Source: Myxococcales bacterium
GTDB lineage: Bacteria > Myxococcota_A > Polyangia > Polyangiales > GCA-016699535
Direction: 5' to 3'
Assembly: GCA_020633325.1 (NCBI GenBank)
Contig: JACKDX010000002.1
Location: 150,040 to 214,039, forward strand
Length of the DNA stretch: 64,000 bases
Positions 14,371 through 29,741 of this stretch are shown here, piece by piece. The first letter of the stretch is position 1, and every line of letters begins with the position of its first letter. Made by a program: the position numbers and the translations under genes. The notes beneath the pieces were generated by a model. That model was not told the origin of the DNA, made no database searches, and was given only the letters and a program-made list of their open reading frames with translations.

Positions 14371-14404
14371 GCGCCCCATGCGTTGCCCCTGTTCGGTGTG
14401 CAAC

Positions 14405-14424
14405 GCTGCTTCTAAAGAAGCAGC
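14405..14424. terminator. Perfect 8-bp hairpin downstream of the GT2 gene
   Basis: GCTGCTTC-TAAA-GAAGCAGC; only a weak U-tract. Confidence 0.35.
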
Positions 14425-14640
14425 ACATTTGAGCGCATGTCATGACGCTATTAAGGAACACCATTGGCGCCACGGTTGAGGACTGTTGGCCCAATCATTA
14501 GCAACTAATTGAGCGGTGGTGAGGTGAGCGATGGGCGGCTGTGTGCTCAGACTGGAGCAACATGCCCACATGCGATCTTCCTGAGTATATAGCGGCGCAT
14601 ACGCGAATATCTCTAGGATGCGGCGCCCATTGGCAGTGAT

Positions 14641-14656
14641 TGGCACGGACGTTGCT
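14641..14656 (+). promoter_or_regulatory. sigma54 (RpoN) promoter
   Basis: TGGCACG-GACG-TTGCT, full match to the TGGCACG-N4-TTGCW consensus. Confidence 0.8.
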
Positions 14657-14669
14657 CGAGCAACGCCAA

Positions 14670-16232
14670 ATGAAGCAGTTAGCTTATGGTTGTGTGCTTA
14701 GAGTAATGCTCGGTGTGCTCACCGGATGCGCGGCAGAGAGTGCGCAGAATCCGATTGACCAGGATAAGGGCGCCGTTAGTCAGGAACTGCTGGATCGCGC
14801 CTGCGACGCGCTAGACGTCGTATATCCTCATGGCATAGACAAGCGCTTTGCCGGAGATGTGCTTCATCCAGCATTCTTCATCGGGGCCAATGCCGGCGTC
14901 TCGGGAAGCCTGGGGTATTATCATCAGACCGGGTTTGCTGGCATGGACGTGGTGTTCGATCTGTCCCGTCAGGAGATGATGGTGGCGGATTACGCCGGCT
15001 CCGGCTCGGGAACGGGAGACCTCCTCGGTTTTGGCGTTTCCGCGAGCGCATATGCGGGTATGGGCTTTGGTCTCGATCATGGCGTGCAAGATTGGTTGGG
15101 TTGGTTTGTAGGTCGCAGCACCTCATTTAATCCCATTCCCGTCCTCAGTCAGTTCGTTGACTTCGAATATGGCAGCTTTGGTTACGCGGCGGATCTAAAC
15201 GACGACGGCATCATCGCACGTTCGGGCTCGGCAGAAGAAGTCATCGAGCCACCAAGTGGCGTTTACGGACGCTCGATCGGCGCCAAAATAGGAATCGACA
15301 TCTTATCGCTTTTGAGCGGAGCGGTGAACACGGTGCTAACCGCGGGATTGGCCAGCCCTCCCGTTCAGGTCACCAACACCTCTGCGTACTGGCGCTCCTT
15401 CAACTTCGGCACCGCGATTCTGTATGCGACTTTGCTGCGCGCTGGCTTTGAGGTGTCCTTCGTGGACGAAGACGGTAGCGCCTGCGACTGCTTTGTGGCA
15501 AATCGTTCGTTTCCCGAGCGGTTCTTCGACGGGCCCTGTGCACGGTTGCCGTGGCTGGGCCGAGATGAAACCGAAGAAGAGCGCGTTTGCCGGGTGCGTT
15601 TTGACAACGATCGAGACGGCAAAGCGATGTCATCAGCGATGAGCTGCATCGGCGAAGATGCACTCCTCAGCGGAGGATGTATTATGCAGTCCGATCGCTC
15701 AGCGCTTTACAATGCGATGGCCCGCATGCGACTCGTCAACCGCGGAATCGGTGGCGCTGCGGCAGCTGGCATGATCGATCTAGGGTCTATTCTCTCACAA
15801 GTCACAGCTGATCTGAGGAATTCAGGGTTCAGCAGTGCGCTCGAGGCGTGCCCCGATCTATTTGTAGAAAAGGAGGCATGTGAAGATGGGATAGATAACG
15901 ATGGCAACAATCTTGTCGACTGTGCCGATCCAGCGTGTGCCTCAGATGGATTTTGTAGCTGCACCGTCGATCCAGCACAGCCGTATTTGCGCCTCAATCG
16001 CGACTATTGTGCACGGGATTGCGAGAAGTGGGATAGCACCCAAGCTGGCATCGCGGCGTGTCCCGACAACTATGCCTGCCAAGATGAGGGGTGGTGTCGA
16101 TCTGCTCAGAGTTGCACCGCCAATAGCGACTGCCCGACGGTGAGTGTCGATGCCGAACTATACCCCGTGGTGTGCGTCGAAGGGCAATGCGTGAGCGGGA
16201 TCATTCACCAACCCTATAACGCAGTGCACTGA
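14670..16232 (+). CDS. Hypothetical lipoprotein with Gly-rich N-domain and Cys-rich C-terminus
   Basis: Lipobox LTGC; CEDGIDNDGNNLVDCADPAC myxobacterial Cys-rich motif; start moved to MKQLAY because the annotated 14640 start overlaps the promoter. Confidence 0.8.
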   Translation: MKQLAYGCVLRVMLGVLTGCAAESAQNPIDQDKGAVSQELLDRACDALDVVYPHGIDKRFAGDVLHPAFFIGANAGVSGSLGYYHQTGFAGMDVVFDLSRQEMMVADYAGSGSGTGDLLGFGVSASAYAGMGFGLDHGVQDWLGWFVGRSTSFNPIPVLSQFVDFEYGSFGYAADLNDDGIIARSGSAEEVIEPPSGVYGRSIGAKIGIDILSLLSGAVNTVLTAGLASPPVQVTNTSAYWRSFNFGTAILYATLLRAGFEVSFVDEDGSACDCFVANRSFPERFFDGPCARLPWLGRDETEEERVCRVRFDNDRDGKAMSSAMSCIGEDALLSGGCIMQSDRSALYNAMARMRLVNRGIGGAAAAGMIDLGSILSQVTADLRNSGFSSALEACPDLFVEKEACEDGIDNDGNNLVDCADPACASDGFCSCTVDPAQPYLRLNRDYCARDCEKWDSTQAGIAACPDNYACQDEGWCRSAQSCTANSDCPTVSVDAELYPVVCVEGQCVSGIIHQPYNAVH

Positions 16233-16245
16233 GTGAGGCGTTTCG

Positions 16246-27597: not shown

Positions 27598-27621
27598 GAC
27601 ACTCTCCTTACTGGGAGCTAA

Positions 27622-27637
27622 TGCAAATACCGCGCCA
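27622..27637 (-). promoter_or_regulatory. sigma54 promoter of the serpin gene
   Basis: Minus strand TGGCGCG-GTAT-TTGCA, 24 nt before ATG 27597. Confidence 0.85.
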
Positions 27638-27757
27638 CATAAATTGTCTCTGAAATCAAAGGAAAACTTCGCAGGCTTACTTACGCTGGCACACTCTGGC
27701 ACACTCCTTGAGCGAGCCCACGCAGCAGGCGCTACCAACTTGTCATGGCTTGCCGCG

Positions 27758-28177
27758 TCAGCGTTCGCGGATGCCCACATCGTCGGCAAAGCTCCCAATC
27801 GCACGCTCGGAAATAATATGTTTGGCGGTGGCCGCATTGGTGGCCAGAGGGATGTTGTGCACGTTGCAGATTCGCATAAGGCTTTGAATATCTGGCTCAT
27901 GTGAATGCTTGCCCAGCGGATCGACAAAAAAGAAAACGGCCCGGATCTGGCCTTCTGCGACAAGCGCCGCGATTTGTGCATCACCCCCTTGAGGTCCCGA
28001 GAGCACTTGGCGCAGGGACAAACCACAGTTCTCCTTAAGCACTTGCCCTGTGGTATTAGTGGCCACCAAGTCATACGAGCGAAGAATCTCGAAATGTTGC
28101 AAGGCAAACGCCACCATGTCGGCTTTTTTGTTGTCGTGGGCAATGAGGGCAAGGGTCTTGCGATTCTCGGCGGGCAT
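27758..28177 (-). CDS. mgsA: Methylglyoxal synthase
   Basis: ALIAHDNKK, ATNTTG, SGPQGGDAQI, FF.DPL..HSHEPDI, CNVHNIPLATN. Confidence 0.96.
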   Translation of the reverse strand: MPAENRKTLALIAHDNKKADMVAFALQHFEILRSYDLVATNTTGQVLKENCGLSLRQVLSGPQGGDAQIAALVAEGQIRAVFFFVDPLGKHSHEPDIQSLMRICNVHNIPLATNAATAKHIISERAIGSFADDVGIRER

Positions 28178-28487
28178 TAGGTGTCTTCTAATCGACGGCC
28201 TGAGAAGTGGCAAGGTACTCACGGCGCGCGGGTTGAAGCGCCGCCGGCGTGTGCTAGCTCAAAAACCATGCCTCTCCGATGCCAGTACATTTCTTGGTTG
28301 CTCGTTGCCTTATCTACGGCAGGCTACACGGTCAACACCAATTCCTAGCGCCTTGCGCCGACGGGTATACAAACTACAACTCTGGGTTCCTGTGCGCATT
28401 TTCTCAAGAGGATACCCTCTTCGCGGCAGCCAGGTTGAAATTACATTGATCGGCTGGACAGGGGTCGATTCGGTGCTAGTGCTTCAT

Positions 28488-29741
28488 ATGAACTACACCA
28501 TATCAGTACCCATTGTCTCGGGGCTTGCCCTTGCGTGTGCCGCAGCCTCCGGATGTGCCAGCCGAGTGGAAATGCAAGGCGACACAGACCAGTCTGGCCA
28601 GGCGCCGCCAATCACAACGACGTGTGGCAACTTGGGGGACAGCAAAGGGTACAATCAGGACCAACTCTTTTGCTATCGGGCCCTCGATCCATTGCCCACT
28701 GGCTGCGACAAGTCGTGGACCGATGGGGACGAAGACGTCACCTCGGATGACAATCAATGGGTCTGCGATACCTTTCTTGAGCATGCTGCGCCTAGTCCCG
28801 AGTGGAAGATTCTCAATCAAGCGGACAATGGAGATCTTGCACCGACGGTGCTTGGGGATGACATCGAGTGTGATCTTTGTATGGGTTATGCGCCGGGGGG
28901 CCAGCATCCCTCTGCGCGAGAAACCGTGCTTCCAGAGTATATGCTGGACGGCTACTGGCGCTTGACTACGCTGTTTGGCGACGGAATACCGATGTTTAGG
29001 CTGAAGACCCATCAAGGAAAGGTTGAGATTTTCCAATGTGTGGTTTGGGGGGGCAACTATCAAGGCAGTGTTGAAGTGGGAAACCTGTGGCCGACTAAGA
29101 TTCAATGTAACGATCTGCCTGCCGTGACCGGCGCCGTCGCTCAGCGCGCCGGGATACCCGAGGTAAACATCACTGTCGAAGACAAGGATGATATCTCTCG
29201 TCCGACGGCTGAGCTGTGGAATGGCGTCGCATACGACCCCGATACAGGTGCGCTGAACTTTCGCCAAGACGCAACCGTTCTCAAGGTGAAATTTGCAGAT
29301 CATATATCCGATTCAGTCATCAACCACCCTGTAGAACCATCAGGCGATTGGGATGTAATTGCCGTAGTGGCCAATGAAATTATTGCCCGCCGCAGTTATC
29401 ATCTGGCGCTCGAAGGCGATAGCGCGCGGGGCGACCTCGTAGCCTGTGAAGACAAGGAATGTTCCCCAACTATCACGGTCATTCAAAGTGAAGACCCGTC
29501 AGGCGGCTATCACATGGACGTCGATCTTGGAGAGTTTCCGCTCTCGTGGATATTTATAAACGAGAGTGGCACGACTTTAATTTCGGGGGAAACGCGAACT
29601 ATCAACGGCAGCACGATGATCACGCCCGGGGGCATGCTGGCCTTTTGCGAGGATTTCAGCGTGGGGAATGGTCTTTTATGGGTAAGGGCCTGTCTCACTC
29701 CGAGCGCAAAAGTGAAGCCGGCCGCTTTGGACGCGATTTAG
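28488..29741 (+). CDS. Hypothetical lipoprotein
   Basis: MNYTISVPIVSGLALACAAASGC signal/lipobox; Cys- and beta-rich body; the ORF extension to 28050 overlaps mgsA. Confidence 0.75.
   Translation: MNYTISVPIVSGLALACAAASGCASRVEMQGDTDQSGQAPPITTTCGNLGDSKGYNQDQLFCYRALDPLPTGCDKSWTDGDEDVTSDDNQWVCDTFLEHAAPSPEWKILNQADNGDLAPTVLGDDIECDLCMGYAPGGQHPSARETVLPEYMLDGYWRLTTLFGDGIPMFRLKTHQGKVEIFQCVVWGGNYQGSVEVGNLWPTKIQCNDLPAVTGAVAQRAGIPEVNITVEDKDDISRPTAELWNGVAYDPDTGALNFRQDATVLKVKFADHISDSVINHPVEPSGDWDVIAVVANEIIARRSYHLALEGDSARGDLVACEDKECSPTITVIQSEDPSGGYHMDVDLGEFPLSWIFINESGTTLISGETRTINGSTMITPGGMLAFCEDFSVGNGLLWVRACLTPSAKVKPAALDAI

Follow-up and report, generated by a model that had tools for sequence, protein, structure and literature searches.

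The subject of this study is a block of about 15 kb that lies between a GT2 glycosyltransferase gene and hisG in the genome of an uncultured member of the Polyangiales, and that contains seven lipoprotein genes, two genes for cytoplasmic proteins (yegS and mgsA) and two gene remnants. The block is part of a 64-kb stretch of DNA that was analyzed as a whole (C2:150040-214039 of the host genome), which we call the window; positions are those of the window unless a contig is named. The host is represented by a metagenome-assembled genome of reduced size (2.74 Mb in 4 contigs, 56% GC, 98% complete), and the sequence of the window is also present in activated-sludge and wastewater metagenomes. Comparison was made with a genome of the same genus (G001), one of the same family (G002), 30 relatives within the Polyangiales, and the metagenomic relatives L095 and L097. 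A first-pass annotation, made from the sequence alone, had read the block in terms of Myxococcus, as a co-regulated and rapidly exchanged set of exported effectors. That frame does not suit the host, which by lineage, GC content and genome size is a member of the Polyangiales and not a Myxococcus.

The lipoprotein genes and their variable slot

The seven lipoprotein genes are given below with the residues that close their signal peptides, the hyphen preceding the cysteine at +1. Lengths are in amino acids (aa).

14670..16232, + strand: lp1, 520-aa lipoprotein (NF033662, E=1.3e-11); lipobox MKQLAYGCVLRVMLGVLTG-C
16246..17580, - strand: lp2, orphan lipoprotein of 444 aa, acidic at its C-terminus and lacking a sigma-54 site; lipobox ...GLPLFG-C
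19541..20878, + strand: lp3, 445-aa orphan lipoprotein; lipobox ...WLAGSPG-C
21575..23140, + strand: lp4, 521-aa SBBP beta-propeller lipoprotein, LipL53-like (NF047494, E=2.6e-18, under the cut-off of that model; PF06739 weak); lipobox ...SLIVIIG-C
23241..26156, - strand: lp5, 971-aa lipoprotein with a partial PEPcase_2-like region at aa 235-487 (PF14010, E=9e-15); lipobox ...FSTIG-C
26311..27597, - strand: serpin lipoprotein, 428 aa (PF00079, E=5.5e-110, positions 2-370 of 370); lipobox ...GVSFALG-C
28488..29741, + strand: lp7, 417-aa orphan lipoprotein, no sigma-54 site; lipobox ...LALA-C or ASG-C

The lipobox was defined as a signal peptide ending in [LVI][ASTVI][GAS]C with an invariant cysteine at +1. 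All seven starts proposed in the first-pass annotation do indeed open with a lipoprotein-type signal. Six of the boxes are canonical, and that of lp3 is a non-canonical SPG-C, which is SLG-C in four homologues. The cysteine is retained in homologues or paralogues of lp2, lp4 and lp7; in the G001 ortholog of lp4 the box reads LLVG-CGRIGFDP. Lipoproteins thus make up seven of the nine intact genes of the block, against 9-13% of genes genome-wide by our own heuristics. By density of lipoprotein genes the block ranks in the top three or four clusters of the genome, and is not the sole one. Other dense clusters, with up to seven lipoproteins in 10 consecutive genes, lie at C1:1431000-1452000, C1:704000-719000 and C1:1467000-1478000.

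The genes that flank the block, together with the two cytoplasmic genes within it, are as follows.

13666..14370, + strand: GT2 glycosyltransferase (Dpm1-like), the left conserved flank (PF00535, E=1.4e-27)
17798..18733, + strand: yegS-type lipid kinase, cytoplasmic and not a lipoprotein (NF009602, E=1.7e-99)
27758..28222, - strand: mgsA, methylglyoxal synthase, cytoplasmic and of housekeeping type (NF003559, E=5.6e-49)
29958..30839, + strand: hisG, the right conserved flank and gene 1 of the his operon (orthologs at 82% in G001 and 75% in G002)

How stable is the content between these flanks? The GT2 orthologs of G001 and G002 (75% and 67% identity) adjoin hisG in both genomes, and the hisG orthologs border the variable slot there. 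The interval between GT2 and hisG is 15.5 kb in the host, 2.2 kb in G001 and 13.8 kb in G002. The G001 slot holds one unrelated 582-aa lipoprotein gene that has no sigma-54 site. That of G002 (L014, G002:C1:3817000-3836500) carries genes for a BCCT transporter, MscS, an M42 peptidase, an EF-G paralogue, a GNAT + ATP-grasp protein, AsnB (asparagine synthase, apparently 5'-truncated) and two lipoproteins, one of which has a sigma-54 site. The slot takes very different cargo. The view of the block as accessory is borne out by this comparison, since what lies between the same flanks differs in the two relatives. A mobile island was considered and rejected: there is no tRNA gene at the borders, there are no flanking repeats, no integrase was found among the open reading frames (ORFs) in Pfam or NCBIfam, and the GC content is like that of the genome.

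In G001 the homologues of lp2, lp4, the serpin and lp7 are scattered over four loci, and none of these loci has a further block gene nearby. In L095, a yegS homolog (64%), a gene for a lipoprotein of ~495 aa and lp3 are adjacent, and this adjacency indicates an ancestral module within the block. Inside the species itself the arrangement is stable: four independent wastewater metagenomes, which come from three other studies, carry the block in colinear form at >99.8% identity, and none contains a junction without it. The fast turnover that had been proposed therefore applies between species, where the cargo of the slot differs, and not within the species, where the block is fixed and colinear in the four metagenomes. 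Of 26 single-nucleotide polymorphisms (SNPs) in these populations, 20 fall within 19.2-23.1 kb (19212-23134). The ratio of non-synonymous to synonymous changes is 4:1 in lp3 and 5:4 in lp4, counts that are too small to interpret. In addition, lp4 has GGG inserted in frame after 22063. Almost no variation is seen in lp1, lp2, lp5, the serpin and lp7. The concentration of SNPs could reflect a recombination tract, or relaxed or diversifying selection.

Two further arrangements in the window lie outside the block. Positions 30848-32581 encode a fusion of HisC and HisB (aminotransferase and imidazoleglycerol-phosphate dehydratase), which is a single ORF also in L013 (382-2181) and L014 (112-1839), with lengths of 599 and 575 aa in the same-genus and same-family genomes. 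As it is kept in both relatives, the fusion is a trait of the lineage and not an artefact of assembly. At 5420-7996 (+ strand) there is a gene for an 858-aa protein with an N-terminal TonB_C domain (aa 53-130) followed by Plug and the barrel of a TonB-dependent receptor, an unusual arrangement in that an energy-transducer domain is fused to a receptor.

Predicted sigma-54 promoters in the block and across the genome

Sigma-54 sites were sought with the pattern TGGCACN5TTGCW, allowing at most one mismatch and requiring the GG and GC doublets to be exactly 10 nucleotides (nt) apart. The whole window contains six matches, where 2.9 are expected. Three of them lie in the block, each correctly oriented toward the start of a lipoprotein gene.

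14641..14656, + strand: predicted sigma-54 promoter of lp1, TGGCACGGACGTTGCT, 0 mismatches, ATG 13 nt on
19499..19514, + strand: predicted sigma-54 promoter of lp3, TGGCACGACATTTGCG, 1 mismatch, ATG 26 nt on
27622..27637, - strand: predicted sigma-54 promoter of the serpin gene, TGGCGCGGTATTTGCA, 1 mismatch, ATG 24 nt on

The three promoters of the first-pass annotation (14641, 19499 and 27637..27622) are thus all near-consensus sites. A fourth and weaker match that it had listed before lp4, TGGCAGCTGGCATGCG at 21533..21548 (+ strand), has three mismatches, and no site precedes three G001 homologues of lp4; this candidate we do not accept. The DNA upstream of lp2, lp5 and lp7 was read and no sigma-54 site was found there. 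Two layouts can be distinguished among the three genes. There is no Shine-Dalgarno sequence between the site and the ATG of lp1, a layout that predicts a leaderless message, while lp3 and the serpin gene have predicted leaders of 14-16 nt that carry a Shine-Dalgarno sequence, GGAGG in lp3 and AAGGAG in the serpin gene. Taking 161 sites per 5.5 Mb on both strands, we estimate the chance that at least three of seven genes have a site within 60 nt as about 2e-7.

The sites recur in relatives. Serpin lipoprotein genes are preceded by sigma-54 sites with one mismatch each in G001 (TGGCATGCATTTTGCT), G018 (TGGCACGCGCGATGCT) and G017 (TGGCACGACCGTCGCT), and by sites with two mismatches in G016 and before a second copy in G018. 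An lp1-like gene of G002 has TGGCATCGGCTTTGCA placed 12 nt before its ATG, and so belongs with lp1 to the predicted leaderless layout. Homologues of lp3 have sites in L097 (TGGCATGCATTTTGCT) and L095 (GGGCATGGAACTTGCT), as does the paralog at C1:635721 in the host's own genome (CGGCACGATAATTGCT). The sites are conserved before orthologs in several families, where the flanking sequence is not.

How general is the association of sigma-54 with lipoprotein genes in this organism? The genome has one rpoN (a single Sigma54_DBD locus) and 12 full-length enhancer-binding proteins (EBPs) with the Sigma54_activat domain, none of which is encoded within the 64-kb window and so none in or beside the block. 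There are 161 sites in the genome with at most one mismatch, and 20 of these (12.4%) precede a strictly defined lipoprotein start within 60 nt. For 150 composition-matched permuted motifs the corresponding figure is 0.64% (maximum 6), so that the real motif is about 20-fold enriched. Among 55 non-intragenic sites that have a downstream ORF, 25 of the ORFs are lipobox-positive and at least seven more are lipobox-like on inspection. It is predicted from these counts that about 30-35 sigma-54 promoters, or ~60% of the well-placed sites, front lipoprotein genes. The base that follows TGGCAC is unconstrained in the search pattern, and it is G in 25 of 38 sites; this fits the published TGGCACG consensus, for which there was no selection. 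Some of the sigma-54 lipoprotein genes adjoin EBP genes, for example C1:787043 by C1:785946 and C4:62958 by C4:63563. Three further sigma-54 lipoprotein promoters lie within C1:688-715 kb (688640, 704144 and 715346).

Distances between the motif end and the start codon show a sharp peak at 12-13 nt (9 of 37 cases), where no Shine-Dalgarno sequence is present. With the GC doublet at -13/-12, such a spacing would place the AUG at about +3/+4, and the mRNA is therefore predicted to be of the leaderless type. A search of the literature gave no description of a sigma-54 regulon dominated by lipoproteins in the Polyangiales, nor of leaderless sigma-54 transcripts.

Could the motifs have arisen by chance, or be unused, with the genes read from promoters of the sigma-70 type? 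No RNA run holds the locus, 52 of 122 matches are intragenic, so that the pattern alone is unspecific, and the predicted 5' untranslated regions are very short, which is atypical of characterized sigma-54 promoters. These points are outweighed by the roughly 20-fold enrichment before lipoprotein starts relative to the permuted motifs, by the preference for G at the unconstrained seventh position, by the conservation of the site and not its flanks before orthologs in several families, and by the presence of rpoN and 12 EBPs. We consider such an explanation highly improbable. The three sites in the block are, on these grounds, probably functional sigma-54 promoters.

A 10-mer, ATGTGGGCAT, is common to the regions upstream of the three sites.

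14562..14571, - strand: ATGTGGGCAT, 79 nt upstream of the lp1 sigma-54 site
19436..19445, + strand: ATGTGGGCAT, 63 nt upstream of the site of lp3
27771..27780, - strand: ATGTGGGCAT, 134 nt upstream of the site of the serpin gene, in the final codons of mgsA

Random triples of 220-nt upstream windows share any 10-mer in just 23 of 300,000 draws. Nine other copies of ATGTGGGCAT exist in the genome, and most of them have no good sigma-54 site in their vicinity; the 10-mer also has no clear dyad partner. It is a candidate for a species-specific activator site, which we put forward as a lead only. The co-regulation that had been claimed for the whole set is narrowed to a predicted sigma-54 dependence of lp1, lp3 and the serpin gene, whose sites are conserved in relatives and which have the 10-mer in common; the other four genes have no site.

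It is against this background that an origin by neutral accretion should be weighed, whereby unrelated envelope lipoprotein genes would have gathered in the slot, with sigma-54 sites that are real but answer to different activators and signals, and a 10-mer that is coincidental. The scatter of the G001 homologues over four loci is what this would predict, and sites before only three of seven genes, the housekeeping genes and pseudogenes interspersed among them and the several other lipoprotein clusters of the genome are equally in keeping with it, as are the nine additional copies of the 10-mer and its lack of conservation in orthologs. The rarity of one 10-mer across three 220-nt windows speaks against coincidence, however, and yegS, the ~495-aa lipoprotein gene and lp3 are neighbours in L095, so that part of the block is ancestral. 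On balance we think this origin rather unlikely.

The proteins of the block and the case for toxin delivery

The lp1 protein comprises a beta-barrel-like N-domain and a C-terminal cysteine-rich region with acidic double-disulfide repeats. A family alignment places the N-domain (aa ~40-390) in an uncharacterized family of lipoproteins of 320-410 aa with the motifs DxVxDLYHxQ, GFxHGVxDWxGYF and DxxGDG, for which searches of Pfam and of PDB sequences gave no relative. The AlphaFold (AF2) model of lp1 has eight long antiparallel strands, with a predicted local distance difference test (pLDDT) score of 73, rising to about 90 in the core. Foldseek found no significant match for it, the top matches being generic beta-barrels at E of about 0.01. 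The gene is absent from G001.

The lp2, lp3 and lp7 proteins are orphans. Among 5.8e9 proteins the lp2 family has only four members, the lp3 family five and the lp7 family two. The host has a paralog of lp2 at C1:1558273 (32%) and one of lp7 at C1:1062419 (32%); the G001 homologs (51% for lp2, 38-40% for lp7) are at different loci. In an alignment of lp3 with its homologues, a conserved N-domain of ~280 aa is followed by an internal hydrophobic helix and a C-domain of ~100 aa, and it is the C-domain that is replaced in the paralog. The AF2 model of lp3 is poor (pLDDT 43.5), and a fold search without a match is in this case uninformative. Paralogs of lp4 are found at C1:816007 (43%) and C1:72118 (37%), with a G001 ortholog (63-64%) that is again at a different locus.

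An enzyme-fold lipoprotein had been suspected among the seven. In lp5 there is a PEPcase_2-like match, which is partial and below the curated cut-off. Assignment as an archaeal-type phosphoenolpyruvate carboxylase fails, with only profile positions 22-257 of 493 aligned, a score of 63.8 bits against TIGR02751 where the cut-off is 146, and E=0.065 for PDB 3odm. The gene is absent from 30 relatives except for partial matches in G027. A domain made up of the N-terminal ~190 aa of lp5 also occurs in C2:611792, C1:415546, C1:1345951 and two G001 proteins (27-33% identity), which suggests that this is a common lipoprotein N-terminal module.

The serpin is the best defined of the seven proteins. Its hinge is of the inhibitory type, EAGTEAAAATAV (G-T-E-A-A-A-A-T-A), in which the small residues at P15-P9 allow insertion of the loop. 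There are homologs in about 20 of 30 Polyangiales genomes, that of G001 being 62% identical. By predicted fold and hinge it is a protease inhibitor and not a toxin.

Two gene remnants lie to either side of lp3.

18805..19296, - strand: 5'-truncated lipoprotein gene remnant, the last ~150 codons (71% identical to the C-terminus of L095_494 and 64% to that of L097_496)
20879..21435, - strand: remnant with a frameshift, corresponding to the N-terminal domain of an Mrr-like restriction enzyme of type IV (PF14338, E=8e-12)

The intact genes for the ~495-aa lipoprotein in L095 and L097 are divergent from the lp3 homologues, and each has its own sigma-54 promoter. From the alignment with these genes, the 5' two-thirds of the host copy is deleted. 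An ORF at 18805-19428 had been taken for a toxin tip; it was rejected as such and is the C-terminal remnant of this lipoprotein gene. The restriction-enzyme remnant is split between two frames, and when these are joined it matches PADLOC PDLC03657 (mREase_IV) at E=1.4e-11 over positions 1-91 of 317; the remnant contains no nuclease domain. Decayed defence and toxin fragments had been reported here. The defence fragment stands, as the N-terminus of a type IV restriction enzyme, while the toxin fragment was part of a lipoprotein gene. In L097 a BrnT toxin gene and a small downstream ORF, presumably the antitoxin, directly follow the lp3 homologue (7746-8262), with no counterpart in the window.

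One proposal for the block is that of an arsenal under common control, whose products would act as effectors or polymorphic toxins that reach other cells through outer-membrane exchange or vesicles and serve in predation or kin competition. The proteins are indeed lipid-anchored, restricted to the lineage and encoded in a variable region; the C-terminal domain differs in the lp3 paralog, population SNPs cluster in lp3 and lp4 with many of them non-synonymous (the 4:1 and 5:4 given above), a 10-mer is common to three sigma-54 promoters, and the phylum is largely predatory. Yet searches of the seven lipoproteins against Pfam, NCBIfam, PADLOC and PDB sequences gave no toxin, defence or enzyme-effector match, and no toxin, nuclease or peptidase domain in any of them. 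The models of lp1 and lp3 (the latter poor) have no toxin-fold match. No small co-oriented ORF that might encode an immunity protein follows any of the seven genes; what lies downstream of them is another large lipoprotein gene, yegS, mgsA or one of the remnants. The supposed toxin tip was a lipoprotein gene remnant, and the serpin blocks proteases and does not attack cells. Moreover, the link between sigma-54 and lipoprotein genes is genome-wide, and for this reason it does not mark the block as a dedicated arsenal.

Outer-membrane exchange is likewise not established for this organism. The genome, which is 98% complete, encodes four PA14 proteins, all of them without a match to the NCBIfam TraA model at E<=0.001; a TraA whose PA14 domain is too divergent for PF07691 would have escaped this search. 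One PA14 protein is encoded in the window at 7998-9521 (- strand), a 507-aa lipoprotein (LMLFG-C) with TIG/IPT repeats and a C-terminal PA14 domain, whose architecture is unlike that of TraA. Another is a cysteine-rich protein of 1266 aa (C1:63069, C1:64023-64355) that has a lipobox-like LAGH-C and a sigma-54-like site upstream, TGGAACAACACTTGCA. With neither toxin nor defence domain nor immunity partner in evidence, the claim that the block encodes delivered effectors or toxins is not supported. There is no indication that toxins are delivered to other cells, and we judge the arsenal distinctly unlikely.

A proposed sigma-54 programme for envelope lipoproteins

The reading that we prefer is that the block is a species-specific plasticity zone holding lineage-specific envelope lipoprotein genes, three of which are under a sigma-54 programme for lipoproteins that spans the genome and is gated by activators. 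We consider this probable. It would work in the following way. The zone between GT2 and hisG, which has no hallmarks of a mobile element, would have gathered the seven lipoprotein genes, yegS, mgsA and the two remnants. The lp1, lp3 and serpin genes would be read from their sigma-54 promoters, and would stay silent until one of the 12 ATP-driven EBPs opens the promoter. Two kinds of message would result: for lp1, whose start codon follows the motif at 12-13 nt, a leaderless one, and for lp3 and the serpin gene one with a leader of 14-16 nt and a Shine-Dalgarno sequence. The output may be a signal-gated remodelling or protection of the envelope, for example by a lipid-anchored serpin that guards envelope proteins from serine proteases. 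In all this we infer the transcription start sites, the leaderless translation, the acting EBP and the physiological role.

Several points weigh against this reading. A sigma-54 site is lacking before four of the seven lipoprotein genes, and the block as a whole is therefore not a single regulon. Three sigma-54 lipoprotein promoters in 13 kb is just mildly above the density in the genome, where about 33 are spread over 2.74 Mb, with a scan-level P estimated at about 0.1. The 10-mer does not behave as a conserved enhancer, since it was not found upstream of orthologs and one of the block copies is coding. Five more distant genes of the lp1 family have no sigma-54 site upstream, from which it follows that the sigma-54 wiring is specific to the lineage. 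The RNA runs that were searched for the locus do not hold its sequence, and the calls of genes and lipoproteins are those of our own heuristics. Lastly, lp1, lp2, lp3, lp5 and lp7 may have a role in predation or competition.

Envelope regulons that depend on a single EBP are well known, those of PspF, ZraR and GlrR among them. More broadly, sigma-54 as controller of the bacterial exterior is an established idea (Francke et al. 2011, PMC3162934). The present system resembles such regulons in having -24/-12 promoters before genes for exported or envelope proteins, enhancer-binding ATPases, and rpoN together with multiple EBPs. It differs in that lipoprotein genes dominate (~60% of well-placed sites), in that many starts lie 12-13 nt after the motif, and in that no EBP is encoded in or beside the block.

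The SitA proteins of Myxococcus xanthus are polymorphic lipoprotein toxins delivered by TraAB outer-membrane exchange (PMC11287280). Points of likeness are the N-terminal lipobox, the lineage-restricted variable loci and the swapped C-domain of the lp3 paralog. In contrast to SitA, no toxin domain can be recognized here, the genes have no immunity gene beside them, the PA14 proteins of the genome do not match TraA, and the host belongs to the Polyangiales and not to the Cystobacterineae.

Miropin of Tannerella forsythia is a lipoprotein serpin, and other inhibitory serpins of bacteria are known. Like Miropin, the serpin of the block has a full-length serpin fold behind a lipoprotein signal and an inhibitory-type hinge, and is a predicted inhibitor. 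What sets it apart is the predicted sigma-54 control, conserved over several families of the Polyangiales; we know of no description of such control for bacterial serpins. In Borrelia burgdorferi, the RpoN-RpoS pathway controls surface lipoproteins such as OspC. There too sigma-54 stands at the top of a programme that alters the surface lipoproteome, but it acts on a single promoter, that of rpoS, and the lipoprotein genes are RpoS-dependent, whereas here it is the lipoprotein genes themselves that carry the -24/-12 sites.

What the analysis describes is therefore a plasticity zone of orphan lipoprotein genes, and not a demonstrated toxin arsenal. Small-genome uncultured myxobacteria are common in wastewater sludge. 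A wider proposal, which we make tentatively, is that sigma-54 could be a dedicated switch of the surface lipoproteome in this reduced-genome lineage of the Polyangiales, with at least about 30 genes having their own -24/-12 promoter, including the serpins of several families, and that a subset transcribed from the AUG itself or from within 2-4 nt of it may constitute the first class of sigma-54-dependent leaderless mRNA. Were this so, the fixed spacing of 12-13 nt between promoter and AUG would be a new architecture of sigma-54 promoter and message, in which an activator turns on translation-ready lipoprotein mRNA that has no ribosome-binding leader, perhaps upon contact with prey or a surface. 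One alternative sigma factor would then gate a large share of the surface lipoproteome, and the list of ~30 genes would be one of candidates for interaction with surfaces, prey and proteases.

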